A DNA stretch of 32,000 nt from Nitrosarchaeum sp. (GCA_965223865.1 OZ245020.1:1416000-1447999); one strand, 5' to 3'; positions 14,135 through 26,335 are shown, counted from the first letter of the stretch. A program made the numbers and translations. Notes: a model not told the origin generated them from the sequence alone.

Positions 14135-14770
14135 CTAAACAGGAGTCTTTGAATACAAAGAAGATACAACTGATTTAGCTATTTTTCTTCTAAAGGAAAT
14201 CTTGTAAAATATTAAAACACCGAAAAGCTCCAAATACTCTACAAAACCGACAGTGTAAAAATGCAAGAGCCATCCATCAAGCATTTGATCAATTGATGCA
14301 ATAGCTGCACTCATCTGTGGAAATGCTGTAAGAAAGGCCATAGGAATCATCAAAAAGCCAGAAAACCAATCAGAGGCATTCATATCCTTTGTAGATTCTA
14401 AGACTTGTTCGGTTGATTGTAAAGGAGTATTTTGAATATTTTGAATTTTTAAATCAGAATAAACTGTATTGCCTTGGTCTATTGCAAATATCATGCCACC
14501 TAATATCAAAAGAAGAAATACAGATTCTCCAAAAACTATCAGCCCACGTTTGCCTTTTTGGAATTTGTACATTTGTCTCTCCAACATGGGGCCAAAAAAG
14601 CCTAGCTTTTTCTTCTTTGCAAGTATGATTACTAGAATAGAGATTGCAGATATAACGCCTAGAGATCCCCACCAATTATCTGAAACATATTCAACAAAAA
14701 GAAGTCTTGCAGGTAATAGCAATCCAGCCATTACAGAAAATACAATTAAGGACTCAAAAATGCCTCTCAA
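14135..14770 (-). CDS. multi-pass membrane protein (about 5 TM); the 5' end may extend to ATG 14798 across a homopolymer frameshift
   Basis: 211 aa with five hydrophobic segments. The only in-frame starts are TTG 14770 or ATG 14731. Confidence 0.6.
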   Translation of the reverse strand: MRGIFESLIVFSVMAGLLLPARLLFVEYVSDNWWGSLGVISAISILVIILAKKKKLGFFGPMLERQMYKFQKGKRGLIVFGESVFLLLILGGMIFAIDQGNTVYSDLKIQNIQNTPLQSTEQVLESTKDMNASDWFSGFLMIPMAFLTAFPQMSAAIASIDQMLDGWLLHFYTVGFVEYLELFGVLIFYKISFRRKIAKSVVSSLYSKTPV

Positions 14771-14820
14771 AGGTATTTTCCTCGAAGAATTGTTTCATAA
14801 TTGGTAGGTGTGAGCAATGC

Positions 14821-14855
14821 ATATAACTATGGACACTAGATTTAACTAGTGCTAA
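14821..14855 (-). promoter_or_regulatory. bipartite CACTAG promoter element, copy 1
   Basis: Read on the - strand: TTAGCACTAG (14855-14846), 9 nt, GTGTCCATAG (14836-14827), then TTATAT (14826-14821). An ATG lies at 14798, 28 nt from the 5' end of the TATA-like box. On the + strand, CACTAG (14834-14839) and CTAGTG (14846-14851) also form an inverted repeat. Confidence 0.6.
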
Positions 14856-14972
14856 CTTTTTAGATTATGAAAATAAATTTTTCTTATATTGATGAATTTT
14901 TATGGATTTTTTTAGAAAAAAGCATCAACAATAATGTGGTTCTTTGAGTTCAAAAGCACCTAATTAGGATGA

Positions 14973-16361
14973 CTATTCCTTGTTTGATATTTTTTTGAAA
15001 ATTTCTTTACTGTATGATGATTCAGATTTATGTTCAATCATAGGTTTGGGATAATCTATATTTTCTGGATATTTTGTATCCAATGAATGAATTACTTGAG
15101 AGGGTAAATTTTCAAGTTCAGCAATCCATTTCTTTATGTAGATACAATCAGAATCAAATTTTTGTTGTTGGAGCCAAGGATTGAATATACGAAACCAGGG
15201 TTGGGCATCACATCCGGTAGATGCTGCCCATTGCCAATTTCCAATATTTACACTAGGATCATAATCCACTAGCTTTGAGGCAAAATACCAATCACCCCAT
15301 CTCCAATCAACATGCAGATCTTTAGTAAGAAATGAGGCAACTATCATTCGTACCCTATTATGCATAAAACCAGTGGCATTTAGCTCCCTCATTCCAGCAT
15401 CCACTATGGGAAATCCAGTTTTGCCCTCACACCATTTTGTAAATGCTTTTTTGTTTTTACTCCAAGGAATTTTCTGATATTTTTTATTAAATTCTTTTGA
15501 AATACTATATGGATAATGGTGCATTATGTAAGTGAAAAAATCTCTCCAATGAATCTCAGTTATCAGAGTATGTGTTGGTCCTAACTCTTGTAAAATTTTA
15601 TGATAAACTTCTCGTATAGAGCATGTTCCAAATCTATTATGGGCAGACAGCATAGATGTACCATTTATTGCTGGAAAATTTCTATCATTTTTGTAATTTT
15701 TTAGATTTTTTAGATTATTCATTAATCGTAGAGACGATTTTCTTCCTCCTCTAAAAGATAGTTTATCATTGTTTTTTCCAAGATACGTCTCTAATTTATC
15801 AATGGTAATCTCTGATTTTATTTTTTGATTTGAAAGATTAGAAAATTGAAAATTTTGTGGTTTTCTTACAGGTAATTCCTTAGCTTTTGAGAAGAATTGT
15901 GTAAAAATTTTGTAGGGTTGTCCTTTTAATGTCTTGATCTCCTCTACATCATGAAGAAGTAAATCATTTGTTGTAATAAAATCAACTTTGCATTTCTTAC
16001 AAACTTTCTTTATATTTTCGTCTCTTTTCTTGCTAAAAGGGGTATAATCAGCATTTACAAAAACTGCATCAAGTTTCAACAAGTTAATTAAATTTTCAAT
16101 AATTTTTTCAGGTAATCCAGAAAAAACATGCAAATACGATTTCCTGGTTTGCAATTGTTTGTTAAGGTCCATTAGACATTCATGAAGAAATTGAAGTCGA
16201 AACTTGCTAAATTTTGGATTAGATTTTTGTGATAATTTTGGATCAAGAATAAAACAAGGAATGGTTTGAATAGAAGATTTGTTTGCCTCAATCAATCCCG
16301 TATTATCAATCAGTCTGAGGTCACGTCTAAAAAGGAATAATGATTTTTGATATTTCTTCAT
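14973..16361 (-). CDS. phr: deoxyribodipyrimidine photolyase / cryptochrome family flavoprotein
   Basis: 462 aa. N-terminus LFLFRRDLRLIDNTGL, and FAD-binding C-terminal region TGFPIVDAGMRELNATGFMHNRVRMIVASFLTKDL...DYDPSVNIGNWQWAASTG. Confidence 0.92.
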   Translation of the reverse strand: MKKYQKSLFLFRRDLRLIDNTGLIEANKSSIQTIPCFILDPKLSQKSNPKFSKFRLQFLHECLMDLNKQLQTRKSYLHVFSGLPEKIIENLINLLKLDAVFVNADYTPFSKKRDENIKKVCKKCKVDFITTNDLLLHDVEEIKTLKGQPYKIFTQFFSKAKELPVRKPQNFQFSNLSNQKIKSEITIDKLETYLGKNNDKLSFRGGRKSSLRLMNNLKNLKNYKNDRNFPAINGTSMLSAHNRFGTCSIREVYHKILQELGPTHTLITEIHWRDFFTYIMHHYPYSISKEFNKKYQKIPWSKNKKAFTKWCEGKTGFPIVDAGMRELNATGFMHNRVRMIVASFLTKDLHVDWRWGDWYFASKLVDYDPSVNIGNWQWAASTGCDAQPWFRIFNPWLQQQKFDSDCIYIKKWIAELENLPSQVIHSLDTKYPENIDYPKPMIEHKSESSYSKEIFKKISNKE

Positions 16362-16369
16362 TGTTTTAA

Positions 16370-16804
16370 TTATAAAATAAGAATAGGACAGTGTGCATTT
16401 CTAAACACATTCTCAATGGTGCTATGATAATGCATTTTTTCATATGTAGAAGAAAGTTTTGTCTTTGTCATTATTATTAGATCTACGTTGTGCTTTTTAG
16501 CAAAATCAAGTATTAGCATAGATGCTAATCCATTTTTTACAGTTTTAGAACTAAAAGAAAGGTCATGCTTTTTGGCAAGTTTTTCTAATTCTAAATGCTG
16601 TTTTTCAACTAATTTGCGTTCTTTCTCAAACTCTTTTTTGCTTGTTTTTGTTTTGAAAAACCCAAACGTTGGTCGTTCTTCCAAACAGGTAAGAACAGTA
16701 ATCTGGGAATTGGTTGATTGTGATAAAACAAGGGCTTTTTTGAATGCCTTTTGGCTTCCTGATGTTCCATTATAAGGTACCAGTATATGTTCGAAAGTTT
16801 TCAT
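16370..16804 (-). CDS. universal stress protein (UspA family)
   Basis: 144 aa. The pattern ILVPYNGTSGSQKAFKKAL...DLIIMTKTK...ENVFRNAHCPILIL is Usp-like. It lies 8 nt upstream of phr, so the two are probably co-transcribed. Confidence 0.8.
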   Translation of the reverse strand: MKTFEHILVPYNGTSGSQKAFKKALVLSQSTNSQITVLTCLEERPTFGFFKTKTSKKEFEKERKLVEKQHLELEKLAKKHDLSFSSKTVKNGLASMLILDFAKKHNVDLIIMTKTKLSSTYEKMHYHSTIENVFRNAHCPILIL

Positions 16805-16956
16805 TGTCTCTTTTCTTTAAGCGCTAGTAAAATAGGATTTGATCTGTCATTTATTCCAATTTTATAATGGTATATAGATATTCACCATAATAGAACTGTT
16901 TAGAGATTTATCTAGAATAACAAATTATTTTACCACTGTAATATTTTTTTCAGAGA

Positions 16957-17232
16957 TTAGACAGTATCTTTATTCTGTTTGTCTCTTATGATTTTTGCAA
17001 GTGTTGATGCAATATTTTTTGCAACATGTTCAGTTGCAACACTGATTTTTTCATCATCTAACTCTTCTTCAATTCTTCCCATTACTGGCTTTAGAATTTT
17101 ATCAATAAAATCGGAACCATAAATTCTGACATATCTATCATAGACTTGGAATGAAGATTTGATGTCTCCCTGTGTTAACTTTTCATATAATTTATCCATG
17201 AACTGTTTTTCTTTGATTGTGTTTGACACCAT
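16957..17232 (-). CDS. stand-alone helical protein resembling the B12-binding N-terminal cap domain (B12-binding_2) of CarH/MetH-type proteins
   Basis: LYEKLTQGDIKSS...ILKPVMGRIEEELDDEKISVATEHVAKNIASTLAKII parallels the cap-domain pattern L..L..GD...(helix)...P....G..W..GEISVAEEH.A. No Rossmann-type B12-binding domain follows it. Confidence 0.5.
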   Translation of the reverse strand: MVSNTIKEKQFMDKLYEKLTQGDIKSSFQVYDRYVRIYGSDFIDKILKPVMGRIEEELDDEKISVATEHVAKNIASTLAKIIRDKQNKDTV

Positions 17233-17273
17233 TTTAACAAAATTTGCTTGATGTTGTTAAAGATGATCTTAAC

Positions 17274-17310
17274 AGGAATAATTTTCCTTTAAGAATAATG
17301 AATTATTCCT
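17274..17310. repeat. 10-bp inverted repeat in a divergent promoter region
   Basis: AGGAATAATT (17274-17283) and AATTATTCCT (17301-17310) separated by 17 nt. A third GAATAAT lies at 17293-17299. Followed by T6. Confidence 0.7.
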
Positions 17311-17450
17311 TTTTTATGACACAATTTTAAAATTAACATACTAGTTCTCATAATTTTCCTGAATTTGGATTCAATGAATAATTGTATATGAAGTAATGAA
17401 AAATTGAAAAAGTCAAAAATTCTTATTATACTGTAATTGGATGGTACTAT

Positions 17451-17885
17451 TTGTTGACAGAAAAACGAATAATGGTAGGTTTGGATGGCTCTAAAGATTC
17501 TATTCGTGGGCTAAGAACTGCAATTTTGTTTGCAAGACAATCAGACGCCATGATTGTTGGTGTTTATGTTGATACTTCACAAGGGGCAATAAGAGCAATG
17601 TCTGCTCCAAAAATAAAAGAAGAAAAATGGTCAAAGGAAACAAGGAAAGTAATAGAATCTGCCAAAGAAAAAGCCAATATCAGGGGCGTGAAATTTGAAG
17701 GGATAGTTATTGCAGGATATAAGCCTGGAAATGATTTAGCAAATTTTGCAAACAATCGAAAAAATAAGATCGAACAAATGGTTATAGGTTCAAGGGGTTC
17801 TGGATTTCCAAAAGAAAGGTTTTTGGGAAGTACGGCTAACTTTATTTTGCATAAAGCAAAAGTACCAGTTACCGTAGTAAAATAA
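17451..17885 (+). CDS. universal stress protein (UspA family)
   Basis: 144 aa. KRIMVGLDGSKDSIRGLRTAI...MVIGSRGSG...GSTANFILHKAKVPVTVV. TTG start. Confidence 0.8.
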   Translation: MLTEKRIMVGLDGSKDSIRGLRTAILFARQSDAMIVGVYVDTSQGAIRAMSAPKIKEEKWSKETRKVIESAKEKANIRGVKFEGIVIAGYKPGNDLANFANNRKNKIEQMVIGSRGSGFPKERFLGSTANFILHKAKVPVTVVK

Positions 17886-17952
17886 AATCAAAGCAAGAAA
17901 GTTTAACGAATCAAGATAAATAATACATACTCAAAAATATTAATCAAATTTT

Positions 17953-17962
17953 CTAGTGCTAA
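17953..17962. promoter_or_regulatory. isolated exact copy of the CTAGTGCTAA box
   Basis: Exact 10-mer, intergenic, 68 nt after the usp stop and 59 nt upstream of the small ORF at 18021. No clear partner box 19 nt away. Confidence 0.4.
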
Positions 17963-18020
17963 GAATAAGAAATGCAAATGATCCTTTTAACCAAAGAATT
18001 CCAAGTTAATTTGAAAAAAT

Positions 18021-18149
18021 ATGAAAATTAGAATTTCAAATAGATGCTCCACTTGTAAAAAAGAATTTCAAAACATGAAAAATCAGTATTGTTCTATAGT
18101 ATATGAAACGCTAGATATATCTTGTAAGATTTTTAAATATACAAAGTAA
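18021..18149 (+). CDS. small zinc-ribbon-like peptide (42 aa), paralog of 22073..22189
   Basis: Hand translation: MKIRISNRCSTCKKEFQNMKNQYCSIVYETLDISCKIFKYTK. Shares the motif C-S-x-C-K-K-E-[FY]-Q...YC with the 38-aa ORF at 22073. Confidence 0.45.
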   Translation: MKIRISNRCSTCKKEFQNMKNQYCSIVYETLDISCKIFKYTK

Positions 18150-18222
18150 TAAAAATTTGCATACAATTCAATTTTGCTTTGTTAGTTGATTCAAATAATA
18201 TTAGATAGAATTGATTTTTGTT

Positions 18223-18576
18223 TCAAGATTGAAACAAAAATTCTTTGATATTTGTTTTTGTAATTTGATAATCAGGATTGGCTTGTTGAATAAGTTTTGC
18301 AACTAGACCCAATGCCTTTTTTACACCATCAGTTTTCTCCGGATCCGTACCAGGATACAATCTTACCGTAGTTTTATCTTTTCTTGTAGAAAGTTCAATT
18401 AAAAATTGTTGATGCAGTTTGTCAATTACTACTGTTGGAATTAGAGCTGTTCTTTTTTCAGTATCTAGAAATACATTGAGCAATTTTATCAGATAGGGTT
18501 CTTTTAGCATAGTTTCCTCAAAGTCCCGCGAAAAAACTTCAAGATCAATTTTTTTATCAAATACTACATGTGGCAT
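18223..18576 (-). CDS. hypothetical protein (117 aa from ATG 18576)
   Basis: ATG 18576 (MPHVVFDKK...) is preceded by GGAGG 8 nt upstream. The track's longer 18627 start overlaps the zinc-ribbon ORF in another frame. Confidence 0.55.
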   Translation of the reverse strand: MPHVVFDKKIDLEVFSRDFEETMLKEPYLIKLLNVFLDTEKRTALIPTVVIDKLHQQFLIELSTRKDKTTVRLYPGTDPEKTDGVKKALGLVAKLIQQANPDYQITKTNIKEFLFQS

Positions 18577-18589
18577 GCTTATTCCTCCA

Positions 18590-18769
18590 TTAAACACTGA
18601 ATAGTTGTCTCTTGAAATCTTGCACAAAAATTGCCAATTTACAACTTTTGCAGGCTAACAAATCTTCATTTTTTGACTTTATTTTCGTAGTTACCAAGAC
18701 TAATTCAGGCCTTCTACAGTTAGGGCAATCTGCCACCAAATCTCTTCTGTTTGAGTATTCTAAGTTCAT
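18590..18769 (-). CDS. zinc-ribbon protein (59 aa), absent from the ORF track
   Basis: Hand translation: MNLEYSNRRDLVADCPNCRRPELVLVTTKIKSKNEDLLACKSCKLAIFVQDFKRQLFSV. Contains CPNC...CKSC. The ATG lies 28 nt from the TATA-like TTAAATA of CACTAG element copy 3. Confidence 0.6.
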   Translation of the reverse strand: MNLEYSNRRDLVADCPNCRRPELVLVTTKIKSKNEDLLACKSCKLAIFVQDFKRQLFSV

Positions 18770-18790
18770 AATTAGTATAGCTCAAAATAT

Positions 18791-18826
18791 TATTTAACTA
18801 GGGCCAATATTATTTTCTAGTGCTAA
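18791..18826 (-). promoter_or_regulatory. bipartite CACTAG promoter element, copy 3
   Basis: Read on the - strand: TTAGCACTAG (18826-18817), 9 nt, TTGGCCCTAG (18807-18798), then TTAAATA (18797-18791). ATG at 18769. Confidence 0.65.
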
Positions 18827-18886
18827 TTTACTATCAAAAAGATGAATTAAATTTAAAAAAAAATAAAATAGTTTGGCAATTAGTTT

Positions 18887-19471
18887 TCAGTAACTGCCGC
18901 TTTTTGAAGCCCACTCATTCTTTGAAAGGTCAATGCTGGTTCTCAAGGTTTCATTGATTGTTTGTACTGCCTTTCCTATCACCATGGGACTGATTGAGAA
19001 AAATCCCCTGAATCGAGCATCCCCAATATCTTCTGCAACTAGACCAAACGGACCGTATTGCCCTTTGGTTATTACCATCCACATATCTGAGATGTTTGTT
19101 CCAACGCAACTTATTACCTCAGCTGTTTCGGGGAGATTTTGAGCCAAGAAAGGATTGTTAAAATTCCCAACAATCCAAGTTTTCGGTAGATGTTTTAGAA
19201 TTTCGATGTAGCGATCCTCTACATATTTGTAGAGAGACTCAGTCTCAAATGTTGCAAGCAAGGGAGCATTATTTTTCATGGCATATTTTTCCAGCATAAT
19301 ACTTAGACGGTAAAGCGACTTCCTTCCTGTTTTGAAATTAACATATCCTGCGTTTATGAAGTCATCTAATGACCAATTCATCAAATCAGAATCATCAGTA
19401 GGATCTCTTTTTGCCAGTGCAGGAAATTTGCTCCAGACTTCATCTATGAAACTTGTGTACTTTAATTCCAT
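18887..19471 (-). CDS. DICT-like sensory domain protein (family assignment tentative), paralog of 23144..23689
   Basis: 194 aa. LLATFETESLYKYVEDRYIEILKHLPKTWIVGNF...DMWMVITKGQYGPFGLVAEDIGDARFRGFFSISP resembles my recollection of the DICT pattern (atFq...RY...vwv.g...W.vv...L.a.E....rF.G.wsf.P). Confidence 0.45.
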   Translation of the reverse strand: MELKYTSFIDEVWSKFPALAKRDPTDDSDLMNWSLDDFINAGYVNFKTGRKSLYRLSIMLEKYAMKNNAPLLATFETESLYKYVEDRYIEILKHLPKTWIVGNFNNPFLAQNLPETAEVISCVGTNISDMWMVITKGQYGPFGLVAEDIGDARFRGFFSISPMVIGKAVQTINETLRTSIDLSKNEWASKSGSY

Positions 19472-19487
19472 GACTTAATACCGTTTT

Positions 19488-19529
19488 TATTATATATATT
19501 ATAGTGATAAATCTCTAAACTAGTGCTAA
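19488..19529 (-). promoter_or_regulatory. bipartite CACTAG promoter element, copy 4
   Basis: Read on the - strand: TTAGCACTAG (19529-19520), 9 nt, TTATCACTAT (19510-19501), then AATATATATAATA (19500-19488). ATG at 19471, 29 nt from the 5' end of the TATA-like box. Confidence 0.65.
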
Positions 19530-19585
19530 ACAGTTAAACTGTGAGAATAAGGATACTATTTTACCAATAACAATCCAATTAGATC

Positions 19586-19849
19586 ATGAGACAAATTTTT
19601 GTTGCACTTGTAGTTTGCATTCCTTTAACATTGGCCGCATTATTTATTGTAAATAATGTACTCTCAGATACCTTTCCATTGTTTAGAGAAGATCCAATGA
19701 ATGAATTAGATTTTATCAAGCAAACCTATGAGGCAGGATTAGATCATTGTGAAAACAACTATGATAACGTTGAAAAAATAAATAAAATTGAAGAATATAG
19801 AGAATGTATTGATTCAGTAGAAATATGGTATTTGGAAAATTCAAAATAA
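19586..19849 (+). CDS. small N-terminally anchored or secreted protein (87 aa)
   Basis: Hydrophobic N-terminus (IFVALVVCIPLTLAALFIV) followed by an acidic, Cys-containing domain. Confidence 0.5.
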   Translation: MRQIFVALVVCIPLTLAALFIVNNVLSDTFPLFREDPMNELDFIKQTYEAGLDHCENNYDNVEKINKIEEYRECIDSVEIWYLENSK

Positions 19850-19906
19850 TCAATTTAAATTTCCAATAAAAAAAATTTACTTTAATCAAATTTCAAGTCA
19901 AATCTG

Positions 19907-21283
19907 TTAAATTGGTCTTCCTTTGTATTGATAGTCAATTACCTTATGAAAAGTATTGTGTGATGCTATAACCGCTAATGCAGCCAATGCAGCCCAAATA
20001 AAGTTTCTAATTGTAATCCATTCGTTTGGCTGATTAATTATTAGTGAAGTATCAAATATGACATAAAAGTTATCAAACAACCAAAAGGCCAAAGTTATCC
20101 AGGATAATACGCCAGCAATGAGAAACCCCAATCTTGTTTTGTTTCTAACAAAAATTATTGCAGCAATTATTGCAATGTACCAAATAACTCCTCCTAAAAT
20201 CCAAACAGGTTCAAATATCTCAGGACGGTCATCTAACCAGTAATAAGTAGTTCCAAGAATTGCCATTGCAAATAATGATGCACATAAAAGATTTTGATTG
20301 ATTTTAAACCCAGAACGTTCTTCTCTTGGTGGTGTGGAGGGAGGGTTTTCTAGTATTTCTTTTGTTGCAATATCAATGGCATCCTTAACGGATTTGAGTT
20401 TTAATGGAATGATTTTTGATATAGAATCATCTGTCACCACCGTATCATGAACAAGGCTATCAATTAATGGCCTAGCAAGAGAGGCTTTTACAGGAGTGAT
20501 TAAGTCGACCCAGTATGAAGAAAGTCGAGTGGTAAGAAAAGGAATTTGAATAACAAATAGTCTTTTATCTAGATATTTTGCATATACTCGCATTAGTTCT
20601 TCATATGTCATTTTGTCTGAGCCACCAATTTCATAGATATGTCCGGCTGTTTTTGAATTCTCCATACATCCTGTAAGATATTCTATAACATCATCTACTG
20701 CTATAGGTTGTGCAATAGACTTTACCCAGGAGGGACAAACCATCACTGGTAATCTTTCCACCAAATATCTCAACATTGCATAAGAACCCCCTTGAGCCCC
20801 TATAATCAGGGATGCTCGCAGTTCTGTTACGGGTATTTTTCCAGATGCGAGAATCTCGCCAACCTCCTTTCGACTTTTCATATGTGGGGATAATTCCAGA
20901 CTATCATTAACAAGGCCGCCAAGATAGATTATTCTTTTTACACCAGCTTTGGTTGCAGCCTCAAGAAAGTTTTCAGCCTGAATCATTTCTCGTGAGGCAA
21001 ATTCTTTCCAATTCTCCTTACTGCCTTCCATGGAATGAAGCAAGTAATATGCAATCTCAATTCCACTTAAAGCATCTTCAAGCTGTTTTGAATCAAAAAC
21101 GTCAGCCTTAACATATTTTACTTTTGCAGTATCAGGAATTTCTCTTCTAGACATCCCCTTTACATAATATCCTTTTTTTGAAAGATAAGATATTAAACGA
21201 GATCCAATAAAACCAGTTGCACCTGTAACTAAAATATTGTATTGTTTGTGTTTTTTACTAGTATCAGTTGACTGTTGGGACAT
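19907..21283 (-). CDS. NAD(P)-binding atypical SDR (NmrA/epimerase-like) fused to a C-terminal 4-TM domain
   Basis: ILVTGATGFIGSRLISYL Rossmann motif. The C-terminal ~130 aa contains four hydrophobic helices. Confidence 0.7.
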   Translation of the reverse strand: MSQQSTDTSKKHKQYNILVTGATGFIGSRLISYLSKKGYYVKGMSRREIPDTAKVKYVKADVFDSKQLEDALSGIEIAYYLLHSMEGSKENWKEFASREMIQAENFLEAATKAGVKRIIYLGGLVNDSLELSPHMKSRKEVGEILASGKIPVTELRASLIIGAQGGSYAMLRYLVERLPVMVCPSWVKSIAQPIAVDDVIEYLTGCMENSKTAGHIYEIGGSDKMTYEELMRVYAKYLDKRLFVIQIPFLTTRLSSYWVDLITPVKASLARPLIDSLVHDTVVTDDSISKIIPLKLKSVKDAIDIATKEILENPPSTPPREERSGFKINQNLLCASLFAMAILGTTYYWLDDRPEIFEPVWILGGVIWYIAIIAAIIFVRNKTRLGFLIAGVLSWITLAFWLFDNFYVIFDTSLIINQPNEWITIRNFIWAALAALAVIASHNTFHKVIDYQYKGRPI

Positions 21284-21971
21284 TTCTACTTAATCCTTTC
21301 ATTTTTCTTTTTCGTATTATAATTAGGAGGATAATTCCAGGTATTGCAATTAATATGCAGAAAAAGATTGCAATGGAGGAATAATCATTTACTAATATCT
21401 TTGTATCAAGCCATGCTTTAGGCAAAATTGAAAAAAAATCAGTTCCTGAAAAATCTTCTATTGTTCCTATCGCCAAGCTATACTTGCCTGCTTGATTTTT
21501 CTCATCTAACACTATAACAAAATATTTACCCTCAGTAGTAAGTGTGGTTTTTATCTCCTGCCTTTCCCAATATGTTACCTGGCCAAAAGGTTCATAGAAT
21601 TCTCTTCCTGGAAATTCTCCATCATACACAACTTTTTCCATGACTGCGTGACTATCCAGTAGAGAACTATCTTTTTCAAGATAACTACCATTTAACAAAA
21701 TGAGAGTGGGTGAATATTCTTCCAATCCTGAAATTTTTGGAACAACTATACTAGCATAAAATGAATCACCAGGTTTTGCATAAAATGAATAGAATTTTTT
21801 CTCAGTTGAGCCCAGATTTTCGTAGACGGCCCAGGAAATTTTATGGTCCGGAATCTCTAAGGCCATCTCTAAACTTCTGTGCGTATCATCGTGACTAATT
21901 AACTTGTGTCCATATGCGGGACCTATTGAAATAGTTAACAAAACAAAAAGTCCAATTATAATTTTTTTCAC
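21264..21971 (-). CDS. exported protein with a C-terminal membrane anchor
   Basis: The track ORF reaches 22037, but GTG 21971 yields a canonical signal peptide MKKIIIGLFVLLTISIGPAYG followed by HKLISHDDTH. C-terminal TM segment IAIFFCILIAIPGIILLIII followed by RKRK. Overlaps the downstream SDR gene by 20 nt. Confidence 0.55.
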   Translation of the reverse strand: MKKIIIGLFVLLTISIGPAYGHKLISHDDTHRSLEMALEIPDHKISWAVYENLGSTEKKFYSFYAKPGDSFYASIVVPKISGLEEYSPTLILLNGSYLEKDSSLLDSHAVMEKVVYDGEFPGREFYEPFGQVTYWERQEIKTTLTTEGKYFVIVLDEKNQAGKYSLAIGTIEDFSGTDFFSILPKAWLDTKILVNDYSSIAIFFCILIAIPGIILLIIIRKRKMKGLSRNVPTVN

Positions 21972-21999
21972 ATGAATAATATTCAGAAATAGTATTTTA

Positions 22000-22031
22000 A
22001 TACCACTAGAACCTTCGCTGGTTAGCACTAG
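22000..22031 (+). promoter_or_regulatory. CACTAG boxes, copy 5 (variant spacing)
   Basis: ATACCACTAG (22000-22009) and exact TTAGCACTAG (22022-22031) on the + strand. A TATA-like AAATATAAA follows at 22053-22061, then ATGs at 22073 and 22079. Confidence 0.45.
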
Positions 22032-22072
22032 TTTCAAACTAGAGTAGTGTTCAAATATAAAAAAAACAAAAC

Positions 22073-22189
22073 ATGATTATGAATTTAATTTCAGTCCAAA
22101 AATGCAGTAAATGTAAAAAAGAGTACCAAGATTGGTCCTGCGATTACTGTTACACAAAGTATATGATTAAACTAGTGGAAGTGAAATGA
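22073..22189 (+). CDS. small zinc-ribbon-like peptide (38 aa)
   Basis: Hand translation: MIMNLISVQKCSKCKKEYQDWSCDYCYTKYMIKLVEVK. The stop is 1 nt before the ATG of the next gene. Confidence 0.5.
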   Translation: MIMNLISVQKCSKCKKEYQDWSCDYCYTKYMIKLVEVK

Positions 22190-22190
22190 T

Positions 22191-22625
22191 ATGCAAAGAC
22201 TAGACAGTAAAAAAATAGATCATATCGTCCCAGATACTAAAATTCCCATAAGACTTGGTTACATTAAGCCTAACGGTAATCCAGCTATAATTTCTCTTTG
22301 GTATGTGTGTATTGAGGACATGATATATTGTGCTACCCAAAAAACAGCAAAAATTGTGTCATTCCTTGAAAAAAAACCAGTGTGCGGTTTTGAGATAGCA
22401 GGCGATAAACCTCCATACAAAGGAGTACGAGGTGAAGGAACAGTCAAAATTTTGGATGAGAAAGGCAAAGAGATACTTGATATTTTAATTGACAAATATC
22501 TTGGTAAAAAAGAATCAACGCTATCTCAATTTCTGAAAAATAACTCTAAAACAGAAGTGGCAATTGAAATCACCCCACAAAAAATTTTCAATTATGACTA
22601 TTCTAAAAGAATGAAAGATGTTTGA
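22191..22625 (+). CDS. PPOX-like split-barrel flavoprotein family protein
   Basis: 144 aa. The pattern IRLGYIKPNGNPAIISLWYVCIEDMIYCATQKTAKIVSFLEKKPVCGFEIAG...GVRGEGTVKIL fits the family. Confidence 0.5.
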   Translation: MQRLDSKKIDHIVPDTKIPIRLGYIKPNGNPAIISLWYVCIEDMIYCATQKTAKIVSFLEKKPVCGFEIAGDKPPYKGVRGEGTVKILDEKGKEILDILIDKYLGKKESTLSQFLKNNSKTEVAIEITPQKIFNYDYSKRMKDV

Positions 22626-22628
22626 AGC

Positions 22629-22760
22629 ATGAAAAAAGACCATGGCTGTCCCACTTGTGGTTCTAAAAACATTGGAAATTTAGAGATGCAAAAAAATAAA
22701 GACAATACTGTCACATGGAAAAACCAGTGTTATAATTGTAAAAAGTTTTGGTACTCATAA
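22629..22760 (+). CDS. zinc-ribbon peptide (43 aa)
   Basis: Hand translation: MKKDHGCPTCGSKNIGNLEMQKNKDNTVTWKNQCYNCKKFWYS. Contains CPxCG...CxxC. Starts 3 nt after the previous stop. Confidence 0.5.
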   Translation: MKKDHGCPTCGSKNIGNLEMQKNKDNTVTWKNQCYNCKKFWYS

Positions 22761-23045
22761 TAAAATCAAATTTCTTTCTAGTGCCAAAATTATTATTTTT
22801 TCAAATGATGTTATATGATACATTGCTCTTCCCAAGTTATTTCTATCTTCTAGTTTACATCTATCAATCCAATCATTTGCCTCACGCCTTAACGCTCGTT
22901 TAGTTTCGGATAATGGAACCTTAATTTTTGCGTCAGTCCTTTTGCTATGCCATAATATGTCTCCTGCAGTATTACTAATTGCTGTCAACCTGATCGAACT
23001 GTTAAAATCCATTAGCATGTTGAGAAGTTTCTCATACCGACCCAT
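22755..23045 (-). CDS. hypothetical protein (96 aa); possibly Roadblock/LC7-like (weak)
   Basis: Clean ORF with a TATA-like TTTTTATTC about 25 nt upstream of the ATG. Its N-terminus is repeated in the remnant at 12.8 kb. Confidence 0.5.
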   Translation of the reverse strand: MGRYEKLLNMLMDFNSSIRLTAISNTAGDILWHSKRTDAKIKVPLSETKRALRREANDWIDRCKLEDRNNLGRAMYHITSFEKIIILALERNLILL

Positions 23046-23143
23046 TAGTTAGAATATTCCCTCAGAGAATAAAAACAGTTTGGTAATTGCTGGAAAAAAA
23101 ATTTGAAAGATTAACTTAAATCTTATATTAAAAATAAGACATT

Positions 23144-23689
23144 ATGGAAATTCCTTATACTGGATTTGTTAAGCAAATATGGGACGAATTTCCACAACTT
23201 GCTGAATGGCACAGGTTTGATGATTCCAATCTTCCAATGTGGAATTTAGATAAATTTGTAGAAGCAGGATATCACAACTTTTTGGCAAATAGAAAACCGC
23301 TCTATCATCTTAGTAAATTAATTGAAAAATATGCCCAAGAAAACGGTGAGCCATTACTTGCAACATTTGAAGAAATTGCTAGGTACAAATTCGTAGAAAG
23401 GAGATACCAGAAAATGATTGAAAATATACCCAAAATTTAGATAGTCGCTGATTATGGGAAAACTGAAATCCAAGTACCTCCAAAAATGGAAATCCTAAAT
23501 TGTCGTAACACAGAACTATCAAATGTTTGGACTGTTTTTACAAGAGGACCCTATGGACCTTTTGGTTTAATTGCAGAGGAGTTTGAAGATGGAAAGTTTA
23601 GAGGATTTTTTACACTCAACCCAAATGTTTGCAGATACTCCCTAAAATTAATGGGCAAAATATTAGGCACTAAATTTACAATTCAATAA
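23144..23689 (+). pseudogene. DICT-like paralog interrupted by an in-frame TAG at 23438-23440
   Basis: ORFs 23144..23440 and 23486..23689 are in the same frame (342 nt apart). The whole span aligns to the 18887..19471 protein. The TAG aligns with Trp in ...LPKTWIVGNF... versus ...IPKI*IVADY.... Confidence 0.7.
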
Positions 23690-23786
23690 AGTTCTGCGCC
23701 AAGTCAAATATTTAAAAAACCTAAATCTGAAATTATTTCCAAATATTCGATATATCAGAAATTAAAAAATAATAAAAATAAAAAAA

Positions 23787-24170
23787 TTAGTTGTGTCGTG
23801 GAGTTGCTTTCCCTGTAACCTTTACAATATCAGGATCTGAGCAAATTGTTTGAACATTTTTGATGCTCATCAAGCCTGAAAAGATTACACCGTCACCCCA
23901 TCTGCTGGTAGTTACCTCTATTGGATATTTGTCTCTGCCTTCTTCTTGTTTTTGATGAAGGTCTACTCCATCTTTATAGTAGACATAGAGATTCACATGT
24001 GGAATATCTGGGCCTACATATTTTTTGAGACTTACCTGATACATCATTACTTTAATGAGAAGTTCAGGATCTACTTTGGGCATTGCCCGAACAACATCCT
24101 GGAAGAACTGATTAAAATAGGGTTCAACACTGACAGGTTGTTCTTTTATTTCTTGGACTAACGCGGTCAT
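23787..24170 (-). CDS. hypothetical protein (127 aa)
   Basis: Clean ORF. The ATG lies 29 nt from the TATA-like TTAAATAG of CACTAG element copy 7. Confidence 0.55.
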   Translation of the reverse strand: MTALVQEIKEQPVSVEPYFNQFFQDVVRAMPKVDPELLIKVMMYQVSLKKYVGPDIPHVNLYVYYKDGVDLHQKQEEGRDKYPIEVTTSRWGDGVIFSGLMSIKNVQTICSDPDIVKVTGKATPRHN

Positions 24171-24191
24171 GATATATAGTAGTCGGAAATA

Positions 24192-24228
24192 CTATTTAAC
24201 TAGTGATAAATTTGATAACTAGTGGTAA
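24192..24228 (-). promoter_or_regulatory. bipartite CACTAG promoter element, copy 7
   Basis: Read on the - strand: TTACCACTAG (24228-24219), 9 nt, TTATCACTAG (24209-24200), then TTAAATAG (24199-24192). ATG at 24170. Confidence 0.65.
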
Positions 24229-24247
24229 TTTTATTTACTTGTTACTA

Positions 24248-25125
24248 CTAATTCCTTACCCTATTTCTAATAGTAACAGCACTTATTCCAGAAGCCATTG
24301 AGATTTTCATTTGTGAAACTTTTTCATGATTTTTTTGAACAGCCAGATATATTGATGCAGCTGCCATGGCCATAGGATGCTTACCATCAGATATTCCTGC
24401 TTTTTGACCTAATTTCAAAATCTTTCTTGCATCGCGTTTTGTTTTTTCAGACACTGAAACTTCATTTGAGATACGTGTTATGAATTCAGTTGGATCATAA
24501 GACGTAGAATGTAGATCAAGGTCAGTAGCGAGAAGACGATAAAGGCGATATATTACCTTCTTTTTTACTCCTCCAACTCGGGCAACATCATTTATGGTTC
24601 TGGGGGTATCAGTAAGACGACAAGCAATGTAAACAACAGTACATAAAACAGCTTGATTTGAACGGCCAGGAAGAGTTTTTTTTGTTCAACTTTTCTGAAT
24701 AGATATGCAGATTTTTCTACCACATGTTCTGGCAATGCAAGTTTGGAACGTATACCATCAAGTAAAGTAAATGCCTTTATGAGTGACTGCTTAGTTATAG
24801 CATGTCTGCTGTTTCGGTCCCACATTCTCAGACGATAAAATGACCGCTTATTATCACCTGAAATTGGCTTGCCAGTAGAATCTTTGTCTTGAGCCTGAAT
24901 TAAAGTAGATAACCCCATATCTGCCATCTTTAAGGAGATTTTACGGCCAGTTCTTGTATTTGTAAGATATTCTTCTTTGGTCTGACCAGCTGGCTCTGGT
25001 CCAAAATCAATTATTTTTTCAGATATTACAACCCCACAATTATTACATGAAATTTCTCCTGTAATTGCATCGGTTACAAGTAAGGCATTTTTACAATTTT
25101 TCTGGTGCAGTGATTCATTTGTCAT
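24248..25125 (-). pseudogene. tfb: transcription initiation factor TFB paralog with a frameshift in an A8 run
   Basis: The 5' ORF (25125..24592) encodes the Zn ribbon (CKNALLVTDAITGEISCNNCG), the linker and the start of cyclin fold 1 (LPEHVVEKSAYLFRKVEQKK). After the A8 run (24676-24683) the homology continues in another frame: TLPGRSNQAVLCTVVYIACRLTDTPRTINDVARVGGVKKKVIYRLYRLL...HPMAMAAASIYLAVQ...SAVTIRNRVRN, ending at 24248. An A9 run would restore a 292-aa TFB. Confidence 0.8.
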
Positions 25126-25293
25126 CTTTTTTTCCCTACCAATAATTAGTATTCACAGAATTTTAACCACAAACCATTTTTTTTACATGATGCTAAGAAA
25201 ATATATAAAAAAATAAATGAGCATAATGCTATTTTTTCATTTAAAAGAAATAACTAAAGAAAATTGTAAAATAATTAAATATTTTTAAAATTA

Positions 25294-25656
25294 TTAAGAA
25301 TCAAGTTGTATGGAATATACAACATATTTTCCTTTTTTGGCACTAAAAATTCCAATTAGTTTTGCCATTATTCCATATTTTTTATTTCTAAGAGCAATTG
25401 CTTTTTCTGCTAAATCTCCTTGAATTAGTTTAGCTTTTCCTGAATGCCATTTGCTTTTTGGTTTTCCTGAAAAGTTGGATACGGCAACATTTACTTTATT
25501 GTTATTTGCTATTCGTTTCACTTTTCCAGTAAATTCTCTTGTAACAATCCAAATAAAATTATCAAACTCTACAAACCATACAGGAGTCTTTACAGAATTT
25601 CCTTTTTTTCTAAAAGTTTCCAGTACAATATATTTTTCATTTGGAAAAATATCCAC
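25294..25656 (-). CDS. PPOX-class (probable F420/FMN-dependent) split-barrel protein
   Basis: 120 aa, GTG start. YIVLETFRKKGNSVKTPVWFVEFDNFIWIVTREFTGKVKRIANNNKVNVAV fits the family pattern. Confidence 0.6.
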   Translation of the reverse strand: MDIFPNEKYIVLETFRKKGNSVKTPVWFVEFDNFIWIVTREFTGKVKRIANNNKVNVAVSNFSGKPKSKWHSGKAKLIQGDLAEKAIALRNKKYGIMAKLIGIFSAKKGKYVVYSIQLDS

Positions 25657-25716
25657 AAAATAATTTCATTTTAAAATAATGTAAAGGTTGCCAGGAATCA
25701 TAATTCCCTATTCAAA

Positions 25717-25754
25717 TTAGCACTAGTCTAGTTGTTATCACTAGGTTAAATATT
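25717..25754 (+). promoter_or_regulatory. bipartite CACTAG promoter element, copy 8
   Basis: On the + strand: TTAGCACTAG (25717-25726), 8 nt, TTATCACTAG (25735-25744), G, then TTAAATATT (25746-25754). ATG at 25774, 28 nt from the 5' end of the TATA-like box. Confidence 0.65.
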
Positions 25755-25773
25755 ATAAAGCCAACTAAAACAT

Positions 25774-25959
25774 ATGGCAGAAGAACAAGAATGGGCAAAT
25801 TTACTTGCCGAAGTCTTTGACAAGCTTACACAAAAGCATGCCTCAATCACTTATGATTTTGAAGATCTGGAGATGAAAGGCAAAGTCGAAAAAGAGGGCA
25901 AGATAATCCCAACAGGTACGGTTTCCTTAACTGGAAGGCTGACAATTACCGCAAAGTAG
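25774..25959 (+). CDS. hypothetical small protein (61 aa)
   Basis: ORF directly downstream of CACTAG element copy 8. No family recognised. Confidence 0.5.
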   Translation: MAEEQEWANLLAEVFDKLTQKHASITYDFEDLEMKGKVEKEGKIIPTGTVSLTGRLTITAK

Positions 25960-25969
25960 TGGGTGTGGA

Positions 25970-26335
25970 ATGAAAGAGATAAACTTCCCCGCTAATTTTT
26001 TAACTTTTCTGACAAGTGGAAGCATCAAGATAACAAATGATTGCGTCCCATCAATTAATTTTACAGCAACAAAAGACACTCGAATTATTGACATTATTCA
26101 TATTCCAGTCACAATTTCAGGCAAGCCTGGTTTAATTAAACAGCTATCTGAAGCAAAGAGTCTTGCAAAAAATCTGAAACAAGAAAATATTACACTTGAA
26201 ATCAGATTTCAAGGTAATCCCGTACTAAAACTAGGAGAAAAAGCAAATCCAAAACTTGCAAAAATTGTCACATTAAGTAGTGATATTGAAATTACAGATT
26301 TGAAGAAACTAAAAAAATTAAGTGATTTAATTTGA
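25970..26335 (+). CDS. hypothetical protein (121 aa)
   Basis: Starts 10 nt after the previous ORF, so the two are probably co-transcribed. No family recognised. Confidence 0.5.
   Translation: MKEINFPANFLTFLTSGSIKITNDCVPSINFTATKDTRIIDIIHIPVTISGKPGLIKQLSEAKSLAKNLKQENITLEIRFQGNPVLKLGEKANPKLAKIVTLSSDIEITDLKKLKKLSDLI

Follow-up and report, generated by a model that had tools for sequence, protein, structure and literature searches.

A conserved CACTAG direct repeat at promoters of ammonia-oxidising archaea and a B12 photoreceptor-like protein as its candidate reader

The present analysis concerns a repeated CACTAG-containing promoter element in a 32,000-nucleotide (nt) stretch of Nitrosarchaeum sp. 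DNA (GCA_965223865.1 OZ245020.1:1416000-1447999), hereafter the window, and a protein, named B12PR here, which may read this element. The window has a G+C content of 33.5% and is archaeal in style. A scan of the window found exact matches to the 10-mer TTAGCACTAG at 14846-55(-), 17953-62(-), 18817-26(-), 19520-29(-), 22022-31(+) and 25717-26(+), which makes 6 copies against 0.01 expected from shuffles. When the whole window was searched, no exact copy was found outside 14.8-25.8 kb. These coordinates confirm those given in an earlier, sequence-only reading of the same DNA. Every copy is intergenic; a mechanically called open reading frame (ORF) at 21264-22037 overlaps the box at 22022-31, the actual start of that gene being GTG 21971.

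A mismatch-tolerant search additionally finds proximal boxes at 25735-44, 24200-09, 19501-10, 18798-807 and 14827-36, a variant distal box at 24219-28 and an extra box at 22000-09. Five promoters share one layout, in which the distal box is followed by 8-9 nt, the proximal box, 0-1 nt and a TATA-like box, with an ATG 28-29 nt from the 5' end of the TATA-like box. At a sixth promoter (22000-22081), a strong box occupies the distal position, the proximal box is degenerate and a further box lies 22 bp upstream. A seventh promoter lies on the minus strand, where the 22000-09 box, in inverted orientation, abuts the TATA box; GTG 21971, at which the gene of the f8 protein preceding the SDR gene really begins, follows 29 nt further on. 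Judged from this geometry, transcripts of the box promoters are expected to be leaderless. The sites, with protein lengths in amino acids (aa), are:

14796-14855, minus strand: promoter P1, with distal box TTAGCACTAG at 14846-55, weak proximal box GTGTCCATAG at 14827-36, TATA-like box TTATAT at 14821-26 and ATG 14798.
17953-17962, minus strand: orphan single box TTAGCACTAG between convergent genes, with no proximal box, TATA box, gene or ORF.
18767-18826, minus strand: promoter P2, with distal box at 18817-26, proximal box TTGGCCCTAG at 18798-807, TATA box TTAAATA at 18791-97 and ATG 18769; its genes are a 59-aa Zn-ribbon ORF (18590-18769) and a 117-aa ORF (18223-18576).
19469-19529, minus strand: promoter P3, with distal box at 19520-29, proximal box TTATCACTAT at 19501-10, TATA box AATATATA at 19493-500 and ATG 19471; its gene encodes a 194-aa protein (18887-19471, family 3).
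21971-22081, both strands: shared divergent operator, with boxes at 22000-09 (ATACCACTAG) and 22022-31 (TTAGCACTAG).
Plus side of this operator: TATA box at 22050-59 and ATG 22073/22079, followed by a 38-aa Zn-ribbon ORF (22073-22189), a PNPOx-like protein (22191-22625) and a Zn ribbon (22629-22760).
Minus side of this operator: TATA box TTAAAATA at 22000-21993 and GTG 21971, followed by the f8 protein and SDR (19907-21283).
22778-22787, minus strand: isolated box TTGGCACTAG at the 3' ends of convergent genes.
24168-24228, minus strand: promoter P5, with distal box TTACCACTAG at 24219-28, proximal box TTATCACTAG at 24200-09, TATA box TTAAATA at 24193-99 and ATG 24170; its gene encodes a 127-aa protein (23787-24170, family 27).
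25187-25196, minus strand: degenerate distal-type box TTAGCATCAT, then 20 nt, then TTAAAAT, upstream of a TFB paralog.
25717-25776, plus strand: promoter P6, with distal box at 25717-26, proximal box TTATCACTAG at 25735-44, TATA box TTAAATA at 25746-52 and ATG 25774; its genes encode a 61-aa protein (MAEEQEW..., 25774-25959) and a 121-aa protein (25970-26335).

The bipartite architecture proposed earlier therefore holds for the boxes, the TATA-like boxes and the ATGs at 18769, 19471, 24170 and 25774. ATG 14798, which had been taken as the start of a membrane protein, opens an ORF of only 14 codons; the membrane-protein ORF (14135-14770, TTG start 14770) is in another frame. The variant copy at 22000-22031 does precede a Zn-ribbon operon, whose first gene is the 38-aa ORF, and its boxes also abut the TATA box of the divergent f8-SDR operon.

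A syntenic relative, L001, was available for comparison as a 2.16-Mb chromosome from a Nitrosarchaeum metagenome-assembled genome; its SDR protein is 85% identical to that of the window. The orthologous promoters in L001 retain the boxes although the flanking intergenic DNA has diverged. P2 is kept in L001, L035 and L085, the divergent operator is also found in L001, and a P5-type promoter follows the TFB gene in L001, L045, L051 and L074 as well. In other genomes, TTAGCACTAG itself stands at the position of the degenerate box upstream of the window's TFB paralog. The P1 box pair, the 14-codon ORF and the membrane-protein ORF recur together in L001 (13921); since the relative has the same arrangement, the out-of-frame ORF is not an assembly error, and it may be an upstream ORF or serve start-codon control. 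It encodes MKQFFEENTFERHF followed by a stop codon (window 14757-14798, minus strand) and overlaps the TTG start of the membrane protein. The isolated box at 22778-22787 is also conserved in L001 (8500, plus strand); it has no TATA box or ORF and lies antisense to a 43-aa Zn-ribbon gene.

To follow the element beyond the window, one genome per species (185,579 species, 596 Gb) was scanned with the pattern CACTAG-N12-14-CMCTAG-N0-1-TTAAATA. The scan returned 101 stretches, 96 of them from ammonia-oxidising archaea (AOA) of Nitrosopumilaceae or Nitrososphaeraceae type, and the five bacterial matches had neither the TT prefix nor the ATG register. The two pattern-free bases before each CACTAG are T in 83-98 of the 99 non-redundant archaeal sites, and the next two bases are R and S. 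Because these pattern-free flanking positions are conserved, the box can be written as TTRSCACTAG, which is repeated directly with a period of 18-19 bp. An ATG lies 21-22 nt after TTAAATA at 77/112 pattern matches. In the AOA loci, where coding sequence makes up 81% of the DNA, 256 boxes are intergenic and 37 coding, a roughly 29-fold per-base intergenic enrichment; these loci were chosen by the motif itself, and the excess goes far past the ascertainment sites. On complete chromosomes, the strict matches are partly clustered and partly hundreds of kb apart. Since sites are dispersed as well as clustered, they describe a regulon rather than a single island, and the 11-kb island of the sequence-only reading does not mark a boundary: the regulon is AOA-wide.

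Might the motif nevertheless be a generic promoter or B recognition element (BRE) consensus, a chance repeat or a small mobile repeat? All copies do lie in AT-rich promoter-proximal sequence, and CTAG-containing words can distribute oddly in genomes. Against this stand the six exact copies where 0.01 are expected, and the other ~25 transcription-unit starts of the window, which have a TATA box at the usual distance and no CACTAG box; on these two grounds the generic-promoter and chance readings were rejected. Across two AOA families, moreover, unrelated genes keep the element at their orthologous promoters. An interspersed repeat or miniature inverted-repeat transposable element was likewise rejected, as only the two boxes and the TATA box are conserved in sequence, with no extended similarity past them, and the position is fixed relative to the start codons. 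The proximal box does end 0-1 nt before TTAAATA in 99/99 non-redundant sites, as a BRE would, a figure partly imposed by the search pattern and also true of the window and of B12PR promoters that were not pattern-selected. A BRE would, however, be a single element at most promoters, and here an equally conserved second copy lies 18-19 bp upstream. We regard this group of explanations as almost certainly wrong. The comparisons support the element as a specific cis-regulatory signal of a dedicated regulon, as the sequence-only reading had proposed, and not as a generic promoter part.

The genes behind the element were examined by clustering the ORFs of the 96 AOA 8-kb blocks into families, a neighbour analysis that is itself motif-ascertained. 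The element is directly upstream of a secreted ~300-aa protein in 28/28 members, and it is found upstream of family-14 genes (the 61-aa MAEEQEW protein, with its 121-aa partner) in 14/14 and of family 3, the ~190-aa family of window gene 18887-19471, in 12/30. Directly behind it are also SDR-DUF2867, the 127-aa family (window 23787-24170), Zn-ribbon ORFs, small membrane proteins, an amine-oxidase-like flavoprotein (FAD) and the ~280-aa B12-binding protein. Frequent neighbours by Pfam are DUF1722, a pyrimidine-dimer DNA glycosylase (Pyr_excise), NreA (Nre), an SRPBCC protein, a BtuF-like binding protein and a TFB paralog, and in several clusters a photolyase lies downstream of DUF1722. The canonical order is secreted protein, element, DUF1722-photolyase, SDR, two-way elements, B12-binding protein, amine oxidase and SRPBCC. 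The orphan box at 17953-62 is probably a relic of the amine-oxidase promoter, which occupies the same position in canonical clusters. Pfam gave no match for most regulon proteins, including the 194-aa protein of P3, whose earlier 'DICT-like' label could not be reproduced with Pfam, and no carotenoid genes were seen in the regulon. The earlier guess of a light- or UV-responsive module fits a neighbourhood that holds photolyase, DUF1722, pyrimidine-dimer glycosylase, NreA, SDR and an FAD oxidoreductase.

The B12-binding protein, B12PR, is among the commonest neighbour families (37 members, 34/96 blocks). Its gene is divergent from SDR, and bipartite sites face both genes. The promoter of B12PR itself carries TTAGCACTA[GT], 9 nt, then TTAGCATTAG or TTAGCACCAG, then the TATA box. 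As an independent test, 80 metagenome loci were chosen by the B12PR protein alone, of which 76 had enough upstream DNA. The strict bipartite regular expression matched at one fixed position upstream of B12PR in 57/76, and nearly all of the remaining loci have identical boxes save one or two changes. At these promoters the distal box is best kept and the proximal box is systematically weaker. The protein-chosen loci show the same neighbours and targets as the motif-chosen blocks. This arrangement suggests that B12PR is autoregulated through its own boxes.

B12PR is a protein of ~280 aa with, in order, a basic N-terminal domain, a four-helix bundle and a Rossmann B12-binding domain. Pfam assigns B12-binding_2 to residues 84-152 and B12-binding to residues 164-250 (E=3.5e-13). 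Among 41 diverse members, W128-x9-E138-H139 (Wx9EH) is conserved in at least 90%, and the Rossmann motif G172, E173, H175, S220, G248, G249 (ExHxxG...SxT...GG) is nearly invariant. The 280-aa member L084:4137-4979, for instance, reads GEEHHLG, 41 residues, SIT, 25 residues, GG, and P0178 has the same spacing. Wx9EH and D/ExHxxG-x41-SxT/V-x22-27-GG are the signature motifs of the adenosylcobalamin (AdoB12)-dependent CarH photoreceptors, in which Wx9EH caps the 5'-deoxyadenosyl group and the His of ExHxxG is the lower axial ligand (PMC9304148). A phmmer search against the PDB placed photocobilin, CarH and LitR best, above methionine synthase (MetH) and corrinoid proteins. A single-sequence AlphaFold2 (AF2) model was poor (mean predicted local distance difference test score, pLDDT, 55.6); the alignment-based model (pLDDT 90.9) was used instead. 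All of its top 50 Foldseek matches are B12 photoreceptors (photocobilin, CarH, LitR, MerR-B12), with E about 1e-12 and a TM to target of up to 0.86 for the CarH cobalamin-binding domain.

In the AF2 model, the basic N-terminal ~45 residues form three long antiparallel beta-strands (2-9, 12-23 and 28-39). Residues R5, K7, Y14, Y16, V18, W22, Q31, Y36 and G38 are invariant. This domain may resemble Arm/AP2-type beta-sheet DNA binders. In an exhaustive search, most proteins with the domain were of B12PR type, the others being ~175-aa low-complexity-poor proteins with an unrelated C-terminus and a 102-aa protein that has it twice in tandem; the proteins outside the B12PR type are P0335, P0347, P0357, P0359, P0360, P0362 and P0338. 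Such a spread over fusions and a tandem copy would be the behaviour of a DNA-binding module.

Three further genes of the window bear on this candidate:

14973-16361, minus strand: photolyase, which here is paired with Usp and has no boxes; canonical clusters have it behind DUF1722 and a box-bearing promoter.
16957-17232, minus strand: 91-aa helical-bundle-only relative of B12PR, 54% identical to B12PR residues 84-166.
24248-25125, minus strand: TFB paralog with one frameshift in an A8 run near 24672-24680; probable regulon member.

The 91-aa ORF is the 'B12-cap-like protein' of the sequence-only reading. It is a helical-bundle relic of B12PR, in which Leu replaces the Trp of Wx9EH and which has neither the N-terminal domain nor the Rossmann B12 domain. 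Homology continues past its stop codon. Four metagenomic homologs of 70-92 aa are 66-74% identical to it, and a conserved upstream stretch (ttaagatcatcttt...) is common to the window (16957-17300) and the homolog contigs L183 (1-130) and L184 (780-850). The ORF may be a retained short protein, a B12-independent accessory rather than fresh debris. An apparent inverted N-terminal fragment beside it ('DVVKDDL') was considered and dropped because of its shortness; two related contigs conserve the same upstream sequence.

Signs of decay are also seen elsewhere in the window, the orphan box at 17953 being one of them. The two halves of the TFB paralog are each 85-89% identical to the intact L001 protein, and its frameshift reflects either an indel of the assembly or a very recent loss of function. 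A second ~190-aa paralog at 23144-23689(+) has an in-frame TAG at 23438-23440 (TGG-to-TAG) where its paralog has Trp, and the L001 ortholog of window gene 18887-19471 has an early stop (about 11855); by these sequences, members of the ~190-aa ('DICT-like') family are decaying in this clade.

The cluster is also present in the cultured Nitrosarchaeum koreense MY1, where boxes lie upstream of B12PR and of the secreted protein, on the SDR side and upstream of a 60-aa gene next to B12PR. In this soil isolate (L185, AFPU01000001.1 378567-399409) only 46 aa of the photolyase are left, but B12PR, SDR, DUF1722 and the boxes are intact; adjoining the cluster are genes of the tetrapyrrole pathway, namely glutamyl-tRNA reductase, ALAD and a precorrin-2-dehydrogenase-like NAD_binding_7 protein. 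In at least eight Nitrosopumilus genomes, strict CACTAG promoters are followed by a predicted conserved noncoding transcript of ~150 nt (L023, L031, L032 at about 3915-3760 on the minus strand, L055, L064, L071, L077, L017 and L068). It starts with a 7-codon pseudo-ORF (MKGLVVA and a stop) and ends in a T-run, and its predicted fold consists of two similar stem-loop modules (GTCGCCTG...CAGGCCTTAA), in which some changes are compensatory; Rfam gave no match for it, and no copy was found in the window. The NreA genes in L002, L004, L005, L007, L008, L048, L069 and L082 have a different conserved upstream element (cttattagtcaagttaataggca...tttaggcacaaa), which suggests a second, perhaps DNA-damage-responsive, regulator.

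Combined, these results lead us to favour, with some reservation, the reading that the CACTAG boxes are the operator of B12PR, an AOA-conserved transcription factor which would act as a light-released repressor. From the domain layout and the promoter geometry we infer DNA binding by the N-terminal domain, dependence on B12 and light, and repression rather than activation. In the dark, an adenosylcobalamin-loaded B12PR oligomer would put one N-terminal domain on each 10-bp box. With the proximal box at the BRE and abutting the TATA box, TFB and TBP would be excluded and strong, leaderless-type promoters shut. Light would photolyse the cofactor, whereupon the oligomer would dissociate or lose affinity, as it does in CarH, and the regulon would be derepressed. 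Occlusion-type repression is favoured because of the consensus-quality TATA boxes and the placement of the proximal box on the BRE. The regulon would comprise B12PR, SDR-DUF2867, DUF1722-photolyase, the amine-oxidase-like flavoprotein, the TFB paralog, the secreted ~300-aa protein, the 61+121-aa pair, the 127-aa and ~190-aa proteins, and small Zn-ribbon and membrane proteins. With only the distal box at its promoter, the TFB paralog seems to be a target, and as such it could provide a second regulatory tier.

Several observations weigh against this reading. B12PR residues 1-75 have no Pfam match at E<=10 and no PDB sequence match, and because the domain lacks such relatives its binding to DNA is presumed. 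A few family members do not have Wx9EH. The window and 21 kb of syntenic L001 hold no full-length B12PR and yet their boxes are perfectly kept; with six or seven intact promoters of this kind in the window and a local B12PR that is only a relic, the gene of a functional reader would have to lie in another part of the genome. The inverted 22000-09 box beside a TATA box complicates a simple head-to-tail model, and the boxes differ from the tandem 11-bp repeats of CarH. Finally, small Zn-finger, roadblock-like and TFB proteins co-occur with the element and one of these could be the real binder.

This last point opens the reading, which we consider rather unlikely, that another co-conserved protein recognises the boxes and that B12PR is only a regulated member or a sensor acting via a partner. 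Its candidates, to which even jointly we give no more weight, are a 61-aa Zn-finger protein (Zn61) usually next to TFB, small Zn-ribbon proteins, the ~190-aa 'DICT-like' family and DUF6659/134-aa proteins. Such companions are frequent (in the 80 protein-chosen loci, Zn61 was seen 33 times, TFB 33 times and f9 30 times), and several candidate families are themselves behind box promoters. The N-terminal domain without a known DNA-binding relative and the window that keeps its boxes without a local full-length B12PR count on the same side, and class II LitR, which acts with a separate photoreceptor as in the LOV-PmlR2 pair, offers a bacterial precedent (PMC9758184). However, no candidate family is as tightly and invariantly tied to the bipartite site as the B12PR promoter is. 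The layout of B12PR, a sensor with a small basic N-domain, is typical of one-component regulators, and the recurrence of its N-terminal domain in other fusions and as a tandem pair is usual for DNA-binding modules.

The two remaining alternatives are both improbable in our estimate. In one, the proximal box is a specialised BRE for the cluster's TFB paralog and the regulon is switched by TFB exchange, a reader that the sequence-only reading had also considered. The box is exactly at the BRE position, 0-1 nt from TATA, the paralog belongs to the cluster (28 members in the motif-chosen blocks, 33/80 protein-chosen loci), and TFB paralogs drive dedicated programmes elsewhere, such as the cell-cycle programme of Sulfolobus TFB2 (preprint 10.64898/2026.09.06.749720). 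A near-identical box 18-19 bp further upstream would nevertheless be out of reach for BRE-bound TFB. Furthermore, the promoter of the paralog is distal-only, with unrelated sequence beside its TATA box, the B12PR promoter keeps the distal box best, and the window's paralog is frameshifted while the boxes are still perfect. All this makes TFB less likely as reader and B12PR the better candidate. In the other, B12PR is a light- or B12-dependent activator recruiting TBP and TFB rather than a dark repressor. The distal box is better conserved at several promoters, and archaeal activators commonly bind just upstream of BRE/TATA. Yet the TTAAATA boxes, of consensus quality and at standard distance, should be strong unaided, the proximal box overlaps the BRE itself, and every CarH/LitR protein characterised so far is a repressor that light releases (PMC9304148, PMC9758184). 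The light-released repressor thus remains the preferred mode for B12PR. For the full picture, namely an AOA B12 photoreceptor with an undescribed beta-sheet DNA-binding domain on CACTAG repeats over the BRE of a photoprotection and UV-repair regulon, with the TFB paralog and the ~150-nt RNA as a second tier, we see roughly even chances.

Archaeal repressors such as MDR1, LrpA, Phr and those of TrmB type bind over BRE/TATA and block TBP/TFB. The position of the proximal box over the BRE would likewise imply promoter occlusion; in contrast to their helix-turn-helix (HTH) or winged HTH (wHTH) domains and mostly palindromic sites, the present system has asymmetric direct repeats, a presumed beta-sheet reader and a light signal that would come via B12. 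Compared with promoters read by TFB paralogs, a TFB paralog in the cluster and a conserved element at the BRE position are shared, whereas the second identical box 18-19 bp upstream and the distal-only promoter of the paralog set it apart.

The closest known counterparts are the class I CarH/LitR proteins, MerR-type AdoB12 repressors of Thermus, Myxococcus, Bacillus and Streptomyces, which have the same sensor module as B12PR (four-helix Wx9EH and Rossmann) and are among its closest PDB relatives by sequence and fold. Both systems have a direct-repeat operator over a core promoter element and a regulator which is linked to photoprotection genes and, for B12PR presumably, autoregulated. They differ in the DNA-binding part, a MerR wHTH in CarH/LitR and a ~45-aa three-stranded beta-sheet domain in B12PR. 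They also differ in the operator, with three or four tandem 11-bp repeats nnnnTnnACAn over -35/-10 in the bacteria and two 10-bp TTRSCACTAG boxes with an 18-19 bp period here. The target is a sigma-70 -35/-10 promoter in a bacterial host on the one side and an archaeal BRE/TATA in an archaeal host on the other. In content, the AOA cluster parallels the light-inducible clusters under LitR control in bacteria, in which phrB occurs with a short-chain dehydrogenase and an FAD oxidoreductase (PMC9758184). The AOA cluster is also alike to that of class II LitR, Pseudomonas PplR/PmlR with a short LOV protein, where light-induced photolyase, short-chain dehydrogenase, FAD oxidoreductase and many unknowns lie beside the regulator (PMC9758184). 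Class II LitR resembles the window's 91-aa relic in keeping only the helical bundle; it has a MerR DNA-binding domain and depends on a LOV partner, whereas the 91-aa protein has no DNA-binding domain. Two promoter motifs from copper-limited Nitrososphaera viennensis, TTCSGSMTTTGWACYANT and RATTTAAABATAGATTTAAATAATAAS (PMC7785015), were considered as a known version of the CACTAG element and rejected, as the sequences are different. In the literature, we found no report of CACTAG in AOA, of AOA start-site or promoter maps, of archaeal B12 photoreceptors or of an AOA light regulon. The concept of a B12 photoreceptor-repressor on direct repeats is known from bacteria; new are the host and its archaeal promoter context, together with the operator and the presumed DNA-binding domain.

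Nitrification in oceans and soils is driven by AOA, which are major cobalamin producers and which light inhibits. We know of no mechanism by which they perceive and respond to light. The analysis yields a conserved operator, a candidate B12 sensor-regulator with a new, presumed DNA-binding domain and a defined target gene set with photolyase-linked genes, many AOA-specific unknowns, the TFB paralog and a small RNA, and it gives about a dozen families of unknown function a physiological context. As N. koreense MY1 carries the whole system, the question is testable in cultured strains, and a compact archaeal light switch may be of use in synthetic biology. If the reading is true, archaea would, as far as the literature found goes, have in B12PR their first described B12-based photoreceptor and in its regulon their first described circuit of light-responsive transcription. 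The well-known sensitivity of AOA to light would then be connected with their large part in B12 production, and B12 photoreceptors would be extended past bacteria and past MerR-type output domains.

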